A stretch of DNA of 64,000 nt from Macrostomum lignano (lineage: Eukaryota), in the NCBI GenBank assembly GCA_002269645.1, contig NIVC01001087.1, positions 62,001 to 126,000 on the forward strand. Direction: 5' to 3'. Under the pieces are notes generated by a model. That model was not told the DNA's origin, searched no databases, and was given only the letters and a program-made list of their open reading frames with translations. Shown piece after piece: positions 1 to 64,000 of the stretch. The translations under genes were made by a program, and so were the position numbers. Position 1 is the stretch's first letter, and each line of letters starts with the position of its first letter.

Positions 1-3000
1 AGATCCCACACAGAGGTTAGAGAGGCAGATCACACGCAGAGATAGAGAGGCAGATCACACACAGAGGTTAGAGAGGCAGATCACACGCAGAGATAGAGAG
101 GCAGATCACACACAGAGATAGAGAAGCAGATCACACACAGAGATTAGAGAAGCAGATCACACAGAGATAGAGAGGCAGATCACACACAGAGATTAGAGAA
201 GCAGATCACACAGAGATTAGAAAAGCAGATCACACACAGAGATAGAGAAGCAGATCACACACAGAGATTAGAGAAGCAGATCACACAGAGATAGAGAGGC
301 AGATCACACACAGAGATAGAGAAGCAGATCACATACAGAGATAGAGAGGCAGATCACACACAGAGATAGAGAAGCAGATCACATACAGAGATAGAGAGGC
401 AGATCACACACAGAGATAGAGAAGCAGATCACACACAGAGATAGAGAAGCAGATCACACAGAGATTAGAGAAGCAGATCACACAGAGATTAGAAAAGCAG
501 ATCACACACAGAGATAGAGAAGCAGATCACACACAGAGATTAGAGAAGCAGATCACACAGAGATAGAGAGGCAGATCACATACAGAGATTAGAGAAGCAG
601 ATCACACAGAGATAGAGAGGCAGATCACACACAGAGATAGAGAGGCAGATCACACACAGAGATAGAGAAGCAGATCACACAGAGATAGAGAGGCAGATCA
701 CACACAGAGATAGAGAGGCAGATCACACACAGAGATAGAGAGGCAGATCACACAGAGATAGAGAGGCAGATCACACACAGAGATAGAGAAGCAGATCACA
801 CACAGAGATAGAGAAGCAGATCACACAGAGATAGAGAGGCAGATCACACACAGAGATAGAGAGGCAGATCACACACAGAGATAGAGAGGCAGATCACACA
901 GAGATAGAGAGGCAGATCACACACAGAGATAGAGAAGCAGATCACACAGAGATAGAGAAGCAGATCACACAGAGATAGAGAGGCAGATCACACACAGAGA
1001 TAGAGAAGCAGATCACACAGAGATAGAGAAGCAGATCACACAGAGATAGAGAGGCAGATCACACAGAGATTAGAGAGATAGAGAGGCAGATCACATACAG
1101 AGATAGAGAGGCAGATCACACAGAGATTAGAGAGATAGAGAGGCAGATCACATACAGAGATAGAGAGGCAGATCACATACAGAGATAGAGAAGCAGATCA
1201 CACAGAGATAGAGAGGCAGATCACACACAGAGATAGAGAAGCAGATCACACAGAGATAGAGAGGCAGATCACACAGAGATTAGAGAGATAGAGAGGCAGA
1301 TCACATACAGAGATAGAGAGGCAGATCACACACAGAGATAGAGAAGCAGATCACACACAGAGATAGAGAAGCAGATCACACACAGAGATTAGAGAAGCAG
1401 ATCACACAGAGATTAGAAAAGCAGATCACACACAGAGATAGAGAAGCAGATCACACACAGAGATTAGAGAAGCAGATCACACAGAGATAGAGAGGCAGAT
1501 CACACACAGAGATAGAGAAGCAGATCACATACAGAGATAGAGAGGCAGATCACACACAGAGATAGGGAGGCAGATCACACACAGAGATAGAGAAGCAGAT
1601 CACATACAGAGATAGAGAGGCAGATCACACACAGAGATAGAGAAGCAGATCACACACAGAGATAGAGAAGCAGATCACACAGAGATTAGAGAAGCAGATC
1701 ACACAGAGATTAGAAAAGCAGATCACACACAGAGATAGAGAAGCAGATCACACACAGAGATTAGAGAAGCAGATCACACAGAGATAGAGAGGCAGATCAC
1801 ATACAGAGATTAGAGAAGCAGATCACACAGAGATAGAGAGGCAGATCACATACAGAGATAGAGAGGCAGATCACACACAGAGATAGAGAGGCAGATCACA
1901 CACAGAGATAGAGAAGCAGATCACATACAGAGATAGAGAGGCAGATCACACACAGAGATAGAGAAGCAGATCACACACAGAGATAGAGAAGCAGATCACA
2001 CAGAGATTAGAGAAGCAGATCACACAGAGATTAGAAAAGCAGATCACACACAGAGATAGAGAAGCAGATCACACACAGAGATTAGAGAAGCAGATCACAC
2101 AGAGATAGAGAGGCAGATCACACACAGAGATAGAGAAGCAGATCACATACAGAGATAGAGAGGCAGATCACACACAGAGATAGAGAAGCAGATCACATAC
2201 AGAGATAGAGAGGCAGATCACACACAGAGATAGAGAAGCAGATCACACACAGAGATAGAGAAGCAGATCACACAGAGATTAGAGAAGCAGATCACACAGA
2301 GATTAGAAAAGCAGATCACACACAGAGATAGAGAAGCAGATCACACACAGAGATTAGAGAAGCAGATCACACAGAGATAGAGAGGCAGATCACATACAGA
2401 GATTAGAGAAGCAGATCACACAGAGATAGAGAGGCAGATCACACACAGAGATAGAGAGGCAGATCACACACAGAGATAGAGAAGCAGATCACACAGAGAT
2501 AGAGAGGCAGATCACACACAGAGATAGAGAGGCAGATCACACACAGAGATAGAGAGGCAGATCACACAGAGATAGAGAGGCAGATCACACACAGAGATAG
2601 AGAAGCAGATCACACACAGAGATAGAGAAGCAGATCACACAGAGATAGAGAGGCAGATCACACACAGAGATAGAGAGGCAGATCACACACAGAGATAGAG
2701 AGGCAGATCACACAGAGATAGAGAGGCAGATCACACACAGAGATAGAGAAGCAGATCACACAGAGATAGAGAAGCAGATCACACAGAGATAGAGAGGCAG
2801 ATCACACACAGAGATAGAGAAGCAGATCACACAGAGATAGAGAAGCAGATCACACAGAGATAGAGAGGCAGATCACACAGAGATTAGAGAGATAGAGAGG
2901 CAGATCACATACAGAGATAGAGAGGCAGATCACACAGAGATTAGAGAGATAGAGAGGCAGATCACATACAGAGATAGAGAGGCAGATCACATACAGAGAT

Positions 3001-4575
3001 AGAGAAGCAGATCACACAGAGATAGAGAGGCAGATCACACACAGAGATAGAGAAGCAGATCACACAGAGATAGAGAGGCAGATCACACAGAGATTAGAGA
3101 GATAGAGAGGCAGATCACATACAGAGATAGAGAGGCAGATCACACACAGAGATAGAGAAGCAGATCACACACAGAGATAGAGAAGCAGATCACACACAGA
3201 GATTAGAGAAGCAGATCACACAGAGATTAGAAAAGCAGATCACACACAGAGATAGAGAAGCAGATCACACACAGAGATTAGAGAAGCAGATCACACAGAG
3301 ATAGAGAGGCAGATCACACACAGAGATAGAGAAGCAGATCACATACAGAGATAGAGAGGCAGATCACACACAGAGATAGAGAGGCAGATCACACACAGAG
3401 ATAGAGAAGCAGATCACATACAGAGATAGAGAGGCAGATCACACACAGAGATAGAGAAGCAGATCACACAGAGATAGAGAAGCAGATCACACAGAGATTA
3501 GAGAAGCAGATCACACAGAGATTAGAAAAGCAGATCACACACAGAGATAGAGAAGCAGATCACACACAGAGATTAGAGAAGCAGATCACACAGAGATAGA
3601 GAGGCAGATCACATACAGAGATTAGAGAAGCAGATCACACAGAGATAGAGAGGCAGATCACATACAGAGATAGAGAGGCAGATCACACACAGAGATAGAG
3701 AGGCAGATCACACACAGAGATAGAGAAGCAGATCACATACAGAGATAGAGAGGCAGATCACACACAGAGATAGAGAAGCAGATCACACACAGAGATAGAG
3801 AAGCAGATCACACAGAGATTAGAGAAGCAGATCACACAGAGATTAGAAAAGCAGATCACACACAGAGATAGAGAAGCAGATCACACACAGAGATTAGAGA
3901 AGCAGATCACACAGAGATAGAGAGGCAGATCACACAGAGATTAGAGAGATAGAGAGGCAGATCACATACAGAGATAGAGAGGCAGATCACACAGAGATTA
4001 GAGAGATAGAGAGGCAGATCACATACAGAGATAGAGAGGCAGATCACATACAGAGATAGAGAAGCAGATCACACAGAGATAGAGAGGCAGATCACACACA
4101 GAGATAGAGAAGCAGATCACACAGAGATAGAGAGGCAGATCACACAGAGATTAGAGAGATAGAGAGGCAGATCACATACAGAGATAGAGAGGCAGATCAC
4201 ACAGAGATTAGAGAGATAGAGAGGCAGATCACATACAGAGATAGAGAGGCAGATCACATACAGAGATAGAGAAGCAGATCACACAGAGATAGAGAGGCAG
4301 ATCACATACAGAGATAGAGAAGCAGATCACACAGAGACAGAGAGGCAGATCACACACAGAGATAGAGAAGCAGATCACACAGAGATAGAAGCAGATCACA
4401 CAGAGATAGAGAGGCAGATCACACAGAGATTAGAGAGATAGAGAGGCAGATCACATACAGAGATAGAGAGGCAGATCACACAGAGATTAGAGAGATAGAG
4501 AGGCAGATCACATACAGAGATAGAGAGGCAGATCACATGCAGAGATAGAGAGGCAGATCACACAGAGATAGACAG
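1..4575. repeat. Intronic minisatellite, 23-25 bp unit (AGATCACAC(AC)AGAGATAGAGARGC), with a ~1814-bp higher-order duplication
   Basis: Continuous tandem array read directly; the rare variant GATTAGAAAA recurs at 215/2029, 487/2301 and 1411/3225 (offset 1814). Confidence 0.97.
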
Positions 4576-4618
4576 AATATCTTTGGCATCGAATACAAAT
4601 GCTGCCAAACTCCTTCAG

Positions 4619-11300
<6,682 letters not shown>

Positions 11301-56715: not shown

Positions 56716-57921
56716 ATGCCAGACAGTACTTCAAGCTATTCAATTGAGTCCGCAAATACTCGTACGCGTGGCAGTCCATCATCAGGTGGTTGTCTAGCAG
56801 TGAAGCGGGCGCTAAGAAAGGAGCGAGACATCAAAAAGAACCTGAGTCTAAAATACAAATACTATGAATTCTTCGTCAACTCACAGGTAAGGCCTTCTGT
56901 TGCTAAAGAATATCACTATGCTAGTTTTTCCAGTCACAGGACCTTAAAATTAAACGACCACGTGTTGTCTTTTAAGTATACCAGCTAACAATAACCAACA
57001 CTCGCGGCTAACCCACAGTGGATCCCGAACTGGCTACTTCTGCTTCTGCGCTGTCTCATGGGAGGCACCTGCATCTCGGTTTTTATTTATGTGTCTGTCC
57101 AATCTGGCAACAAAGCTTCGTCAAGCACCAGCACCGAAACAACAACAACTTCTCATTCTCCTACTGCAAGCTCAAGCACAAGCACTTCCTATTTCTACCT
57201 GACCTACCTAACGATCTGGAGCTACCTCATGATGACTCTGTACTTTACTTGTGCTCTGGTGAACACAACCTTATTGTGCGTGTGCTCGGGTCGAAAGCCA
57301 ACCAAAGGTCAGGAAGACGGCAACTCGTCAGGGTGTTGCAGCATCGCTGCTAGAGAATCTCTCAGTTTAACTGACTGTGGCTATAAAACTGCCGACCGAT
57401 TGAAAGCTGTCCGCAAACGGTCCGAATTGAAGAGAGCTCTAGACTCGGTGGCTAGACACTTGGGCTTCCGGCTTCAGTGGCTGCTGCACACGATCGCCAC
57501 GGATGCTGCTCTGCTCGTCACTGTAGCTTACTTCTCTCTGCTGTACGAAAACTCGTCTCCAATTGCCGCTTTAGATCTGTTGGAGCACGGCATCAACTCT
57601 GTGTTTATGTTCATTGAAGCCTTCTTTGGCGGCGTTCCGGTTCGCTTCGTGAATATTATCTACGCCGTTTGTTACGCAGTGATTTACGTTTTGTTCAGCG
57701 TATTCTACTGGCTATCGGATCGTAACAATGTAATCTATCTATATTTGGACTGGAACAACCCGGGCCTGACAACTGGTGTTGTGTTCGGCTTAATTCTCAT
57801 CGGGATGCCTCTGGTGCACGCAGTCTGGTGGGGCATACATCTGCTGCGCTGTTACATTGGTGGCGTATTGCTCCATCGGGAAAACAAGTGCAGTCCAACG
57901 CTTGAGACTGAGAACGCTTGA
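56716..57921 (+). CDS. Rolling-stone-like multi-pass membrane protein (Rost / FAR-17a-AIG1-like), 2 exons, ~357 aa
   Basis: Exons 56716-56886 and 57019-57921 joined at FVNSQ|W; motifs YLTYLTIWSY, LQWLLHTIA, LEHGINSV, Y...YVLFSVFYW, IYLYLDWNNP; about 6 hydrophobic segments; acceptor TTTCAG just before the ATG. Confidence 0.82.
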
Positions 57922-58350: not shown

Positions 58351-58837
58351 GCGACTGATATAAATATTTCCGCATTAGCAGTAAGAAGATCCTGCAAACA
58401 GTAGATGAGTTGCTAGTGTTAATTCTATTGCACAATGCTGAATGTAATTGTGGTACAATAAAAAGCACAATTAAAAAGGAAATTAGGGCCTGTATTATTG
58501 CTAGTAAATTGTGCGCACTATCTCTCAACAAATAAGAATCGTGTCAGAGGCCGTACACTCTAGGCTAATAAGAGTGCATATTCTTTGTTATCTAGTATGT
58601 AGTAAGCACATTCGCAGTTTTTTGTTTACAATTCATCTGTAAAAGTTTTTTGACTTAATTTCTCACTCTGGGCTTTGGTATACTGCTGCCTCCATGTCCA
58701 TTATAGCCAATGCTTTCAAGTATTGAGTACCACATGGATTGTCACTCACAATAGCTGATGCATTAAGCCATATTTCAACATAGTTACTTGCGACGTAGTA
58801 GTTGTCTACTAGACGTAGTAGTTGACGTAGCGGTACA

Positions 58838-60173
58838 TGACTTACTTGACTTAGCTGCAGGGCTGTCCCGGGGGGACACAGCGGGAAGGCGCGAGCTCCC
58901 ATTCCGCTAATCCCTGAATGGCCGACGCGTCGCTATGGACTAAGGGTTGGCGCCGCCCAGGGAGGTCACCCAGTGTCGCCAGCAGCTATAGTGCTCTCTG
59001 GAAAGGAGAGTTCAGCCCTACGGGTGGCCTGGAGGTAGCGCATGAGCTGATGAAAGTTTTCGGGTTTGCACGCTTCAGTAATAGATGTGTGTGGCCCGAG
59101 GTAAGTGAGTCTGGCTCGCGTAAAGGCGGGACAGATGCTGACGAAATGCTCAGCGGTTTCGTCACCTGAGTTACAGAAACTGCAGATGGCGTTGGTGGCG
59201 TTGCCCTGCAGGTACTGGTGCCTAGAGAAGCAGCCGTGATCTGAGAGGGTCATGGTGGCAGCCCGGATGTCTCTGCGCGAGAGGCGCAAGAGGAGCTTCC
59301 GGAGCTGGTGAGAGGGCTGAGGGACAGCGCCTCTGGATTTCCTGCAGGTAGTGCAGTTCGCTCAAGCCGAGCGGTGCTGGGTCCTGATCCACGCTTTGAT
59401 GCGCGAGTCAATGACACAGCCAGGAATTGGGACAAGAGGTTCGGGACCGAGAGAGGAGCCGGAGGCGCCAACTTTTGCAAGGGCGTCAGCCAACTCATTC
59501 CATCGGATCCCCACATGCCCCGGAACCCACTTAAGGGTGATTTTGTTGGTGGAGCCCAACACGTTGAGGAGTTTGATACAGTCGAGGACTGTAGCAGAAT
59601 TGGTACTACAGCCACTGATGGCGTGCAAGGCAGCTTGGCTGTCCGAATGGAAAATGATGTTCTTACCGGATACGCCAGTGGCGAGAAGCTCTGCAATGCA
59701 GGAGCTGATGGCGAGAACTTCATTTTGGAAGACACTGGAGTTGACCCCAGTGTACTGAGCGTGGGTTGCGATGACCCTCCCGTTCAGGAAGATTCCAACA
59801 CCAAAACCGGTGTTGGCTGACTGCTTAGAACCGTCGGTGAAGCTCACCATGGTTCCATTGGTCATTGATGGTATCGCGCGAGTCGATAGCTACGGAGTAG
59901 CGTTGTCTCAGGTTGAGCGTTGAGGCAATGCCATCGGTGAAGACGCGACTGGCCTGACACTCGTTGAGAATGTTGGGGCACAGGTCGCTATGCGGGACGA
60001 GGTTCCGCTTAGCAGGTGCCCTCATGTAAAGGAATTTGACACCGGCATCAAGTAAACGCCGCGTCGTTCTAGCCGCCTTACCCCTGACGAAGAGGTCGAG
60101 AGGCGGTAGATTAAGGAAGGCCCCCATGCCGGCAAAGGGCGTGGACCTGGTGGCGTTGCAGATAAGCCTACAC
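58838..60173 (-). mobile_element. Decayed non-LTR retrotransposon (LOA/R1/I group), 3' part: post-RT linker, RNase H, CCHC finger, 3' UTR
   Basis: NLPPLDLF linker; RNase H FTDGSK...FQNEVLAI...SDSQAAL...WVPGHVG...NELADALAK; CSFC...ETAEHF...C; two frameshifts; possible (AAGT)-type tail near 58838-58855. Confidence 0.9.
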
Positions 60174-63007
60174 TGTGACGTTGTCAGTTGAGGTGGCCCC
60201 GACGAGGGCCGTTTTAGCGAAAGCAGTGCCATTCTATAATATTGTTAATTTGATGGTCTCGTACTCTAACGTCTGCTTATAGTAATGCCCAAGGAATTTT
60301 AAACAACATTGCGTGGCGTTCGTAAAGCCAATGTACAATGCGATCGATAATTTCTGTTTTCAAGTTGGTTTTCGCGCCGGCCAATAGGAAAGCCGCGCAT
60401 ATATTATGCTAGCCTGAAATTAACTTTTGTCGCGCACCCACCCCCAGCCCGCTCGTTATCAGTACTGTCTGGCTGGGGCGCCCGGTGTTAGGGTTTCTGC
60501 TCTCCGGAGTTAAGGATCTCCGGCCCGGCGATCCAACCAAAAAAAATTACGCGATTTTACAATCGCCCTCACGGATATCAGGAACCATGACATAAGATAA
60601 GGTTACAGATCGCCGCCATGCTAGACTCTCCGGAGTATTATTATCTTAGAAAATTGGAAGATAAGAGATAAATTACATTTCTCTGATTCTAGAAAGCCCA
60701 GCTCGTGAGCAGCCTATAGCTTGCGCAACTTTTTCGATGAGTTCATCCATCTAGTACATCGTACATTTGCATGCCCTGTGAGGGCTAAATTTAGAGTTGG
60801 CCAGACTTGTGCATCATTTTTCGTCTCTGTGCATTTGTCGAGGGATTTGATTGTCATATATGGCAGTGAAATAAAACATATTGTGAGTAATTGTCTGTTT
60901 GCGGTTATCTTTACTTTCTACTTGTCAAATGGCTACTTTGAATCAAATATTCTTTTATGTACTGAACAATGACTGCGCACAAATTCCTGTCGACTTGAAC
61001 TCGAGAGAGAAAAGCAATTTGAAGAGGCGCATCAGGGAAAAGAGCAGAAATTTTAGCATTCACGATGGAGCATTGTTATTACATGGTGAAAAATCGTGCA
61101 TTAATCTACTGGTGCTTGGTGCTTACCACCCACAGGTAACCTTAACAGTAATGTTTTATGCTTCTGATATTATGTAGCAGTGGTGCATCATTTTTTAAGT
61201 ACGAGTAGATCACTAATTTTCTCCAGACAAACGGTCAAACTGAGCGCCTCAACCAAACGTGCATTAATCTACTGAGAAAGCGGTGTGATTCTGAGGAACC
61301 AACTAACTGGGATTCCATGCTGAATGATGTTCAACTCGCATACAACAGCCGCCGACATTCGGTGACAGGCTTCTCGCCGTGCAGGTAAAATATGAAAGTA
61401 ATAAAGTTTATAGAGAATCAAGTATATTTTATTAAGCATATTTCTATACTGTAGCAGACAATGTTAGTTCATATGCCTCCATTTATCTTTAGAGCCGCCT
61501 TTGGCTTTGAGCCATTGCTAGGCGATCATGCCGCAGCACTGGCTTCGGTTCCGGAGCCGATGGAAATCAACAGGCGATTGCTTGCCAACAAGGACAAGAA
61601 GCGAGCCGCAGCGCGAAAACTAATTGCGCGTAGAATCAAGATCGCTCAAGAAAAGATGCGACAGCGTCACTTGGTTTCGGCTGCTGGAGCTCAAGAGCTA
61701 AAGCGAGGAGACAGAGTTCGGCTTCGAAATCTGCGGAGGGATGATCGAAAGGGTGGCAAGATGCGATACACCTGGGGTCAGCAGGTCTACATCGTGACGA
61801 GGTGCCTCGGTCGCAACGTATATCGATTAGGAGGACTCACTAGACGGGTCAATGGCAGGCATCTCAAGAAGTGCTTTCTACAAGTACAATGGTTGAGCGA
61901 ATCTGCAGTTTTTCATTAGAATCGCATGCGGGACTCTGAACTGACGGCACTCGTACGAGTATTTATCAAAGGTTTCTAGCTCGTATTTCTGCCCTGGTAT
62001 GGTGCATCACAGCTGCAAAATATACTGGCTACAGTGAAACGTTAAACTACGATCGTGCGGAATGTAAAATGTCTTGAAATGGAAAAAATGACTGACATTG
62101 TTAGCGATTTTTACTACCTTTTATGCTTCGATGAAAATTGTTAAACGGTTAAGAGAAGGAAACTACAACAACACTCGTTGCACGATTACGATTTCGGACT
62201 TTATGTAAATGGGGAGATCGGTAACCGGAGATCCTAAACCAAACCTTAGTTATTGCACTCGTGACGGAGATCGGCAAACGGTGTAGAATCTCCGAGGGGA
62301 TAACAGAATCTGGTTTTGGATCTCCGGATAGGGAGACCTGACCATGCCCCGGAGATCCCACAACGGTTACGGATCTCCGATCGTGGAGATCCCTAACCGT
62401 TTGTATTCTCCGAAGGAGATCCTAAACCCTTTAAGATCTCCGGTCGGAGATCCCAGCCCGTTTGCAGTCTCCGGATCGGCGACCCAAAACTGACCAGAGC
62501 CCCGGAGTTTCTAAACCGTAATACCGGGGTTAGGCCCTCTTTCGTTTTCCGGCCCGCGCTCTCTCTCCCCCTCGCTCCGCCACAGTTCTAAGCCATGCCT
62601 CTGCCAAGTCTCAGTCGCGCCACCGCCATCGCCACTTCTCGATCACGCCACCACTACCGTTTGTACAGGGTTCTCGCTACGAGTACCGCCACCATTCGAT
62701 CACTGCCATCACATCATCGCCATTGCCTCAGGCTCTCAACTCGCTCTATCATCTATCTTATTGTTGCGCAGCCGCCCAGTGCATTCCTTACGGATTCAGC
62801 AAAATACTCAGGCCCATCTCTATTAACAACCCAGACGGAATTGATAACTAACGAGCCTAACTATCCACGCATACGGGTACAATAAATGAGAACTGCGGCA
62901 ATCGCCCGCATCATTCGTCACTATCATCGAGTACTACCGCTACCAAATTTGCCTCTGTTGTATTCGCCTTCGTCATTTGATCCCGAGTCTGCCATTTAAT
63001 CGTCACA
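60174..63007 (+). mobile_element. Ginger-like (Gypsy-integrase) DNA transposon, internally deleted, 2834 bp, inserted in the LINE
   Basis: Ends TGTGACG / CGTCACA; 4-bp TSD ACAC (60170-60173 and 63008-63011); removing it restores the LINE frame GRAC|RLIC; no paired LTRs, RT or gag seen; the integrase gene has spliceosomal introns. Confidence 0.85.
60929..61919 (+). CDS. Spliced Gypsy-type integrase derivative lacking the HHCC finger and both catalytic Asp, ~263 aa open frame
   Basis: Exons 60929-61135, 61227-61384, 61493-61919. GIN1-like N-terminus (EKSNLKRRIREKSRNFSIHDGALL); AYHPQ|TNGQTERLNQT; W...L..VQLAYNSRRHSVTGFSP; GPY/F-like region GGKMRYTWGQQVYIV. Confidence 0.78.
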
Positions 63008-63790
63008 ACACGCTCTGCCCTGGATCGTGTTGAGCAAATCTGCATGGCTTTTGACCTGGGTAGCGCTAACCCAGACAACCGAGGCGTACGTAATGGCAGG
63101 TCTAACTACGGAAGTGTAGATCCACCAAAGCCGCTTTGGGGATAGACCCCAAGAAGTGCCTAGTGCTCGTCGGAGCTGGGCCAGGATGGCTGAGGCACGC
63201 TTGGCTTTTGCTTTCATGTGGAAGGACCAGTTGAGCCGGTGGTCAAGTATGACCCCGAGCCATCTGGTCTGGTGCGCGAAGGCAATATCTCTGCCGTATA
63301 ACTGCAGAGGTCGTATGTTCCAGCGTATTCTGCTGGTGAACATAATGGCAAAAAGTTTTGGGCTCAGAGAGTTCCAGACCGTTGTCGTTAGCCCAGGATT
63401 CTGCTTTGCGGATAAAGCTCTGCATCAGATCCCTGAGCGTGCTGGGGAACGGCCCAGACACAATGGCAGTGACGTCGTCTGCATACCCGACTTTGAAGAC
63501 GGGATCAGGTCATGGGTTGCCCAGGAGAGCGTCCATGACCAGTTTCCAGAGCGTCGGGGTAAGGACTCCGCCTTGGGGTCCACCCTTACAGACTCTGGCG
63601 GAGGCAGTTTGCCCAAGAAGTTGGGCAGTGAGCGTACGGTTAGAGATCATGTACATGATCCACCGTATGAGGGTAGCGTGAGCTTTGCGGTTTTGAAGGG
63701 CCCTCTGAAACGCTTCAAAGACAACGTTGTCAAAGGCGCCAACAATGTGGAGAAAAAGAACCAAGCGTCTTCTCAATCTTCAAACTACTT
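63008..63790 (-). mobile_element. Decayed non-LTR retrotransposon, reverse-transcriptase part (same copy as 58838-60173)
   Basis: LFLHIVGAFDNV, GGPQGGVLTPTLW, GYADD, WLGVILDHRLNW, IYTSVVRPAITYASVVW; frameshifted and 5'-truncated. Confidence 0.92.
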
Positions 63791-64000
63791 AAGGGAGGCC
63801 TTAAGTACGATCTCAATTAAAGGTGACAGTTGACTCGCAACCAGCGATGGATCCCTAACCCTGGCTTTGTCATCTCCAGGGACGTACTCACCAAGGAGAG
63901 TCTTGCGTGCTGTTTCCCTGTCAGAATTTTAGCCTAGCCTACAATCCGATCAGTGATCCCAAATATATTTTATTTATTGATTACACCTTCCCTGATGTGG

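Follow-up and report, generated by a model that had tools for sequence, protein, structure and literature searches.

Ginger1 DNA transposons (Bao, Kapitonov and Jurka 2010, PMC2836005) are defined by CCGG or CCGT/ACGG target-site duplications (TSDs), TGTNR ends, terminal inverted repeats (TIRs) of 40–270 bp and YPYY, H2C2, DDE, GPY/F and OTU/Ulp1 modules. Ginger2/TDD elements (PMC2836005) have an integrase-type transposase, TGTNR ends, a 4-bp TSD and a length of ∼2.8 kb, but their target is AT-rich (RTATAY) and they have neither YPYY nor GPY/F. Here we analysed 64,000 bp of Macrostomum lignano DNA (contig NIVC01001087.1, positions 62,001–126,000 of the forward strand; hereafter the window, numbered from its first letter), in which an initial annotation had described a single, intron-containing Ginger-class transposon delimited by ACAC duplications within a long interspersed nuclear element (LINE). 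We conclude, with a probability of about 0.87, that three elements are nested at this locus: an old, decayed LINE was invaded by a 792-bp repeat, likely a Gypsy solo long terminal repeat (LTR), and this repeat by an internally deleted Ginger1-like transposon, which inserted at CCGG and likely moved by cut-and-paste with the integrase of sister copies.

A nest of three elements

The host LINE lies on the minus strand and is split into a 5'-truncated reverse transcriptase (RT) region (63012–63779; Pfam RVT_1, E = 3.1e-7) and a 3' part with the end of the RT region and RNase H (59362–60169; Pfam RNase_H, E = 1.9e-11); further frameshifts and stops mark it as decayed. The 2834 bp between these parts start with TGTGACG, end with CGTCACA and are flanked by ACAC at 60170–60173 and 63008–63011. 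Their removal rejoins the LINE frame (...QGRAC to RLICNAT...), and a LINE paralog (L230, G000:C2034) represents the empty site with one ACAC. The initial annotation had thus recognized the duplication, the ends and the restored frame correctly, the ends being complementary for 7 bp only.

A genome search with the 2834-bp query produced 74 matches, from 40 of 471 candidates scored. Among these, end-to-end matches were confined to the window and G000:C922 (L035, L196), all others being outer halves or the inner part. C922 is not an independent composite insertion, because it shares the flanks: it duplicates window positions 58521–64000 at 99.6–100% identity and carries two further insertions of its own. 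In other outer copies the two halves, 60174–60485 (312 bp) and 62528–63007 (480 bp), both on the plus strand, are directly joined to give a non-coding repeat of 792 bp, which occurs alone elsewhere in the genome, and 8 of 17 unique outer copies have the empty site GGCGCCCGGGGTTA. The inner element occupies 60486–62523 on the plus strand (2038 bp), from TGTTAG to TAATA, between two copies of CCGG (60482–60485 and 62524–62527). Empty sites are known for both the outer and the inner element.

We consider it highly probable that the outer repeat is a Gypsy solo LTR. Its 5' half, likely part of U3, has a CCAAT motif (60381) followed by an AT-rich box (60400) and ends in the CCGG target, while its 3' half has an AATAAA signal at 62881. 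Its first 16 bp occur 391 times in the genome (control, 0), often as same-strand pairs several kilobases apart, and a longer, subfamily-specific pattern occurs 23 times. Among the pairs examined, a polypurine tract (PPT) precedes the second repeat in eight and a TGG-type primer site follows the first in five; four have clean 4-bp TSDs, with LTRs of 769–870 bp, and each of the three long open reading frames (ORFs) scanned has protease, RT, RNase H and integrase arranged as in Gypsy. The outer repeat resembles the LTRs of such paired, PPT-flanked gag–protease–RT–RNase H–integrase elements (L059, L061 and L063) in its TG...CA ends, its length and its short, unspecific TSD. Identity over the first 40 bp is 87–88%, and the sequences are collinear (global alignment score 334 compared with 201 ± 16, maximum 261, for 100 local shuffles). 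Moreover, one variant of the outer repeat directly follows a stretch of ∼120 bp from the Gypsy 3' untranslated region (UTR) and PPT, with 82–85% identity in five of five comparisons and 79–97% identity in three blocks. A Gypsy insertion that duplicated ACAC, followed by recombination between its LTRs, would have left the outer repeat behind.

Several observations weigh against this assignment. A TSD is found on 11 of the 17 unique outer copies, with 4 bp in seven and 5 bp in four, and none on the remaining six, as opposed to 4 bp in the clean full-length sister elements. The PPT and 3' UTR stand beside one variant only. The LTRs of L059, L061 and L063 belong to another subfamily, and pattern searches and extended loci yielded no full-length Gypsy element with exactly this LTR: a search with the sister primer-binding site (PBS) gave no match, no PBS-flanked outer copy was found, a looser parent-LTR pattern gave 24 matches, below the control (78) and none of them a 5' LTR with pol, and no two-LTR parent was present in 16 extended loci and C1711.

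These points bear on two other accounts of the locus. The outer repeat could be a miniature inverted-repeat transposable element (MITE), that is, a non-autonomous DNA transposon of Ginger2 type, with the nest otherwise as described; its non-coding sequence of ∼800 bp, TGTNR ends, mixed 4- and 5-bp TSDs and missing provirus would all suit such an element. We nevertheless regard this as very unlikely, as the inverted repeat measures merely 7 bp, the TSDs do not have the RTATAY core of Ginger2 (PMC2836005), and both the collinearity with Gypsy LTRs and the attached 3' UTR and PPT speak for an LTR. Hardly tenable at all is the original model, in which the whole 2.8 kb form a single Ginger element whose TIRs are 7 bp long and whose TSD is ACAC. 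The ends and the duplication are real, TGTGA is compatible with TGTNR and a second full match exists at C922, but that match is a duplicated segment, outer and inner sequences are found separately and have TSDs and empty sites of their own, and the empty CCGG site in outer copies refutes the model. The 7-bp ends taken for unusually short Ginger TIRs thus belong to the separate, Gypsy-LTR-homologous repeat. Relatives with LTRs and RT, which the annotation had named as evidence that would count against it, do exist for these outer ends, whereas the inner integrase stands without RT or gag.

Some further features may be recorded here. The Gypsy family of L061 (positions 1738–7605, G000:C105), L059 and L063 is young, with LTRs up to 100% identical, and its gag-pol (one 1956-aa frame in L061) has a cold-shock domain between zinc knuckle and protease. 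At L100 (1–8550, G000:C1288), kilobases of telomere repeat are joined directly to a Gypsy 3' UTR, PPT and LTR, resembling a healed chromosome break. At L104, L105 and L106 (G000:C386, C639 and C2818), two LTRs of different subfamilies face each other 2.6–3.2 kb apart with the same flanks at several loci, an arrangement that may represent a composite unit or segmental copies. In the window itself, a frame of 308 aa is open without interruption at 56995–57921 (plus strand) and matches the Rost (rolling stone) domain (E = 2.4e-14).

Ends, coding capacity and introns of the inner element

A protein search of the genome gave 157 matches, and five groups of relatives of the inner element were examined (A–E; 33–100% identity). 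Their members all begin with TGTTA, and CCGG flanks nearly every one of them; the 3' end is TAACA in sister subfamilies and TAATA in that of the window. In the window copy, the left TIR (TGTTA...CTCCGG, 60486–60507) matches the right TIR (62502–62523, minus strand) at 15 of 22 positions. Across eight elements, a ninth with a misplaced end being excluded, the TIRs match at 15–19 of the first 22 bp and 19–24 of the first 40 bp. Exact 5' ends of the inner element occur 17 times in the genome. CCGG is present in 25 of 29 unique 5' flanks and 24 of 34 unique 3' flanks; among 39 unique insertions with both ends, 25 have CCGG on both sides, 12 deviate from it at a single position in one of the two flanks and two are irregular. 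One insertion has a symmetric ACGG/ACGG duplication. The second, internal inverted repeat reported initially does exist, but it is the terminal repeat of the inner element and not an internal one. The dense GGAGATC/GATCTCC cluster is likewise real and consists of subterminal copies, in either orientation, of the inner motif of the TIR (62213–62475): ATCTCC/GGAGAT occurs 11 times in the last 338 bp of the element, compared with 0.32 times in dimer shuffles (maximum 3; n = 2000), and is absent from the middle 1600 bp. Groups A and B also repeat their inner TIR motif in both orientations within the last 300 bp. The array at 62213–62475 likely consists of transposase-binding sites.

Because CCGG is regenerated on insertion, later copies can land beside earlier ones. 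Head-to-tail elements of different subfamilies with one CCGG in common are seen at L033 (2055–2064) and L155, the latter with ends of three subfamilies. L230 carries a group B copy within the same LINE family, at a CCGG ∼40 bp from the LTR site of the window (window 60129–60132).

Intact relatives of the window copy (L027/L028) measure 2534 bp. Their first exon is uninterrupted, that of L027 matching Pfam rve (E = 5.7e-10) and Integrase_H2C2, and removal of two introns gives a 440-aa product with an H2C2 finger and D,D(35)E triad. The window copy departs from this organization in a respect absent from the initial annotation. Its exon 1 remnant (60929–61135, plus strand) encodes the N-terminal YPYY-like region, acquires a 1-bp insertion near 61076 and then runs into a deletion junction, where a 24-bp filler (61095–61118), 17 bp of which are copied from 61258–61274, replaces 556 bp. 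Lost with them are the zinc finger and, of the catalytic triad, both Asp. Exon 2 (61227–61384) retains the catalytic Glu (TNGQTER), and exon 3 (61493–61919) encodes RKGGK and a degenerate GPY/F module before a stop codon, without OTU/Ulp1. Since the finger and both Asp are missing, the window copy cannot be autonomous; with the 1-bp insertion its spliced frame stays open for 263 aa and could yield an inactive protein of that length. A filler with a template nearby is a typical trace of polymerase-theta end joining, and the catalytic core would have been lost in an end-joining repair event. With both ends kept, the copy could move only in trans. Deleted copies of 0.3–2.0 kb with both ends are common. 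Blocks shared between the window copy and other copies are 95–99.6% identical, and the family is therefore young. Copies of 5.5 kb (L021–L024) were considered as full-length elements with extra domains and rejected, the additional 2.9 kb being an insertion within the integrase exon. This insertion (L021, 2910–5855), which we take to be Crypton-like, has a QRICH1-domain match and itself holds sequence with long inverted repeats.

Both introns are of GT–AG type: intron 1 (61136–61226, 91 nt, phase 0) lies between YHPQ and TNG, and intron 2 (61385–61492, 108 nt) is in phase 2. An intronless relative of group C (L119, 64% identical) has a single 464-codon frame that continues across both junctions, and in X2, a putative RNA run, individual contigs lack precisely the 91 and 108 nt of the two introns. 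One X2 contig (depth 9.2) has a filler of the window type spliced onto exon 2. On the other side, each splice joint in X2 is seen in one contig, no splice joint was found in the other three of the four runs (X1, X5 and X6), and contigs of X1 cross intron 1 unspliced. As a weaker substitute for a DNA-run control of the spliced joints, both introns are kept in 12 of 12 genomic subfamily A loci checked. The two introns of the initial annotation, including the one splitting YHPQ and TNG, are thereby borne out.

A third intron position lies ahead of the KY/QY motif. With the positions lettered a–c, group E has a and b, groups D and C have none, group B has all three and group A has b and c. The group tree (E,(D,(C,(A,B)))) has bootstrap values of 98–100 at every node, and, with the intron pattern laid upon it, the simplest account would be that a and b are ancestral, that D and C each lost the two of them precisely, that a was lost again in A, and that c was gained before the split of A and B. 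We infer that the precise losses, which took whole sets of introns, ran through cDNA, perhaps that of the lineage itself, the rival account being recombination between groups.

Placement relative to Ginger1

The elements of the lineage are 2.4–2.6 kb long, with one ORF, no RT, gag or LTR pair, and 0, 2 or 3 introns. The CCGG target, 4-bp TSD, minor ACGG target and TGTNR 5' terminus are all shared with Ginger1 (PMC2836005), as are a single integrase-like transposase with a YPYY-like region, H2C2 and D,D(35)E, without RT or gag, and GT–AG introns that vary in number among families (0–4 in Ginger1). Within the lineage, H2C2 and the DDE core are present in L027 and L119 and deleted in the window copy, and a Y..P..F..YY string ahead of the zinc finger aligns with the YPYY region of protein P0001, by alignment and not by profile. 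This alignment and the CCGG target rule out Ginger2/TDD, with which the lineage has in common the transposase type, the ends and the TSD length: the YPYY region is recognisable here, and a GPY/F region may be so in degenerate form. The initial annotation was right in calling the integrase Ginger-type, spliced and free of RT and gag.

Other features depart from Ginger1 (PMC2836005). The TIRs are ∼22 bp and imperfect, with a subterminal motif array, compared with 40–270 bp; the protein has 440–444 aa compared with 500–800 aa; and the element length lies at or under the published minimum. The position aligned with GPY/F reads WSxxVY behind RKGGK and has no Pfam match, and this degenerate module and the TAATA end of the window's subfamily are likewise unlike Ginger1. 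None of groups A–E has a C-terminal protease domain or an OTU/Ulp1 match in Pfam, and the ORFs stop at 440–448 aa in subfamilies A, B and C. OTU, Ulp1 and PHD domains are all absent from the lineage, the published exception in Ginger1 being the single-copy Ginger1-1_BF. The idea of a distinct short-TIR subfamily, advanced in the initial annotation on the strength of the 7-bp ends, loses that basis, but it survives through true TIRs matching at 15–19 of 22 bp and the missing protease.

The best full-length match was an aphid protein that contains RDDRKGG and runs into the first part of an OTU-like tail. An integrase with OTU came second, and OTU or Ulp1 domains were common among the 69 matches scanned. 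Among 15 integrases of the OTU/Ulp1 group, 6 contain the motif R[KM]GG[KWR] and 12 contain DQG[RK]EF, the counts among 25 integrases of LTR type being 0 and 3, so that the lineage appears closer to the OTU/Ulp1 group than to LTR integrases. Two trees were computed, with unnamed OTU/Ulp1 integrases as a proxy and no named Ginger1 sequence included: a quick one of 78 rows, in which one group D row (L163) was badly assembled from overlapping pieces, and one of 40 rows that left out unlabelled matches and four family rows. Together with three unnamed proteins from other samples, the lineage makes up a single clade (100/99), which the OTU/Ulp1 group (92/93) does not include. Affiliation with Ginger1 is called into question by the weak branch that unites the lineage and the OTU/Ulp1 group against LTR integrases (71 in the first tree, 61/82 in the second), and by the imperfect ∼22-bp TIRs and missing OTU/Ulp1, which fall outside the Ginger1 definition (PMC2836005).

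We file the lineage as Ginger1-like, and not as a member of Ginger1, because target, ends and core domains agree with the definition and TIR length and protease do not. The same observations could mean that it is not Ginger1 by descent but an independent conversion of a Gypsy integrase to a DNA transposon that converged on CCGG. In favour of such an origin, the long-branched clade is fully supported on its own and linked weakly to the OTU/Ulp1 group, and it has neither long TIRs nor a protease; we still judge this origin unlikely, since the main (CCGG) and minor (ACGG) targets are those of Ginger1, the RKGGK and DQGREF motifs are common to both and the nearest full-length matches are OTU-bearing integrases. 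Unnamed proteins of other samples (P0051, P0028, P0035, P0049 and P0172) are 42–74% identical and show that the lineage extends beyond this genome; a protease domain is missing from the end of P0172 as well. Our literature search yielded no description of a short-TIR, protease-less Ginger1 lineage, although Repbase, where such families may be deposited, lay outside it, and the available portions of PMC10045372, PMC6839031, PMC12863088 and PMC3424704 contain no such lineage.

Transposition and the asymmetry of right ends

The features above suggest how the lineage would move. Spliced mRNA of intact 2.5-kb copies would encode the 440-aa integrase, which would bind motifs of the ATCTCCGG type, both in the short TIRs and across the subterminal array, the array making up for the shortness of the TIRs. 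The integrase would nick at the CA-3' ends and join them to CCGG with a 4-nt stagger, and gap filling by the host would produce the CCGG duplication. Deleted copies with both ends, that of the window included, would have been moved in trans by a sister integrase. Cut-and-paste with the integrase of intact sister copies is thus the likely mode; binding, nicking and excision are steps that we infer from sequence features.

Curiously, the flanks are not symmetric. CCTG follows 9 of 100 listed right ends, whereas its mirror image, CAGG, precedes none of 92 left ends (the patterns fixed the outer C and G). The CC-TG(TT) right flanks represent seven independent insertions in four subfamilies (sign test, P = 0.016, applied after the fact). 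They begin CC-T, CC-TG or CC-TGTT, three extending to CC-TGTT, and in four cases paralogous or empty sites show that the target was CCGG (L150/L149, L228/L155, L230/window LINE and L027/X1 contig).

This raises the possibility of an exit like that of IS3, with the left end attacking the right TSD in its middle, between CC and GG. The element would leave its donor as a figure-eight or circle, with a junction of right end, a 2-nt CC spacer from its own TSD and left end, and aborted events would leave right-end scars. In IS3/IS256/IS30 copy-out paste-in (PMC7780238), ends are used asymmetrically and IS3-type junctions carry a short flank-derived spacer, which would explain the CC-TGTT scars, and bipartite end sites resemble the TIRs and subterminal motifs seen here; the seven right-end scars and the CCGG targets behind four of them fit as well, and the defining paper states that Ginger1 excision is unknown (PMC2836005). 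The proposal is doubtful all the same. The pattern was found after the fact, three of the seven scars are explicable by a single base change or insertion and only three reach TGTT, fold-back synthesis at a broken gap yields the same letters, and most TSDs are clean. The IS elements are bacterial, with no introns and no H2C2, and no circle or figure-eight was observed in the lineage; no intact end-CC-end junction was found in the genome or in the four runs. A head-to-tail junction search of the genome gave 97 matches compared with 177 in the control, the pattern being too loose, and recovered nothing beyond one CCGG tandem and scars already known. At non-canonical sites, piggyBac (PMC8717057) likewise shows TSDs that mismatch on one side of a palindromic 4-bp target, but there the odd side is the target, whereas here the target is CCGG and the odd side is new sequence. 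A piggyBac-like carry-over of CCGG overhangs was rejected, as empty sites read CCGG and a symmetric ACGG duplication exists; the available text of PMC4786924 contained nothing relevant to carried overhangs. Our literature search found no description of Ginger excision, for which the right-end scars give a specific prediction.

The locus itself is ordinary nesting in a repeat-rich genome. The lineage it exposes is small (2.5 kb, 440 aa), with young copies, a fixed CCGG target and open ORFs (L027/L028 when spliced, L119 without introns), and is simple enough to assay. The distribution of its introns over a tree with strong support implies that a DNA transposon has lost introns precisely and more than once, a mark that reverse transcription would have left on a class II element. 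The circle route, if true, would be the first mechanism by which a nick-and-join, retrovirus-type integrase mobilises a eukaryotic DNA transposon, and it would explain the fixed palindromic target of Ginger1.

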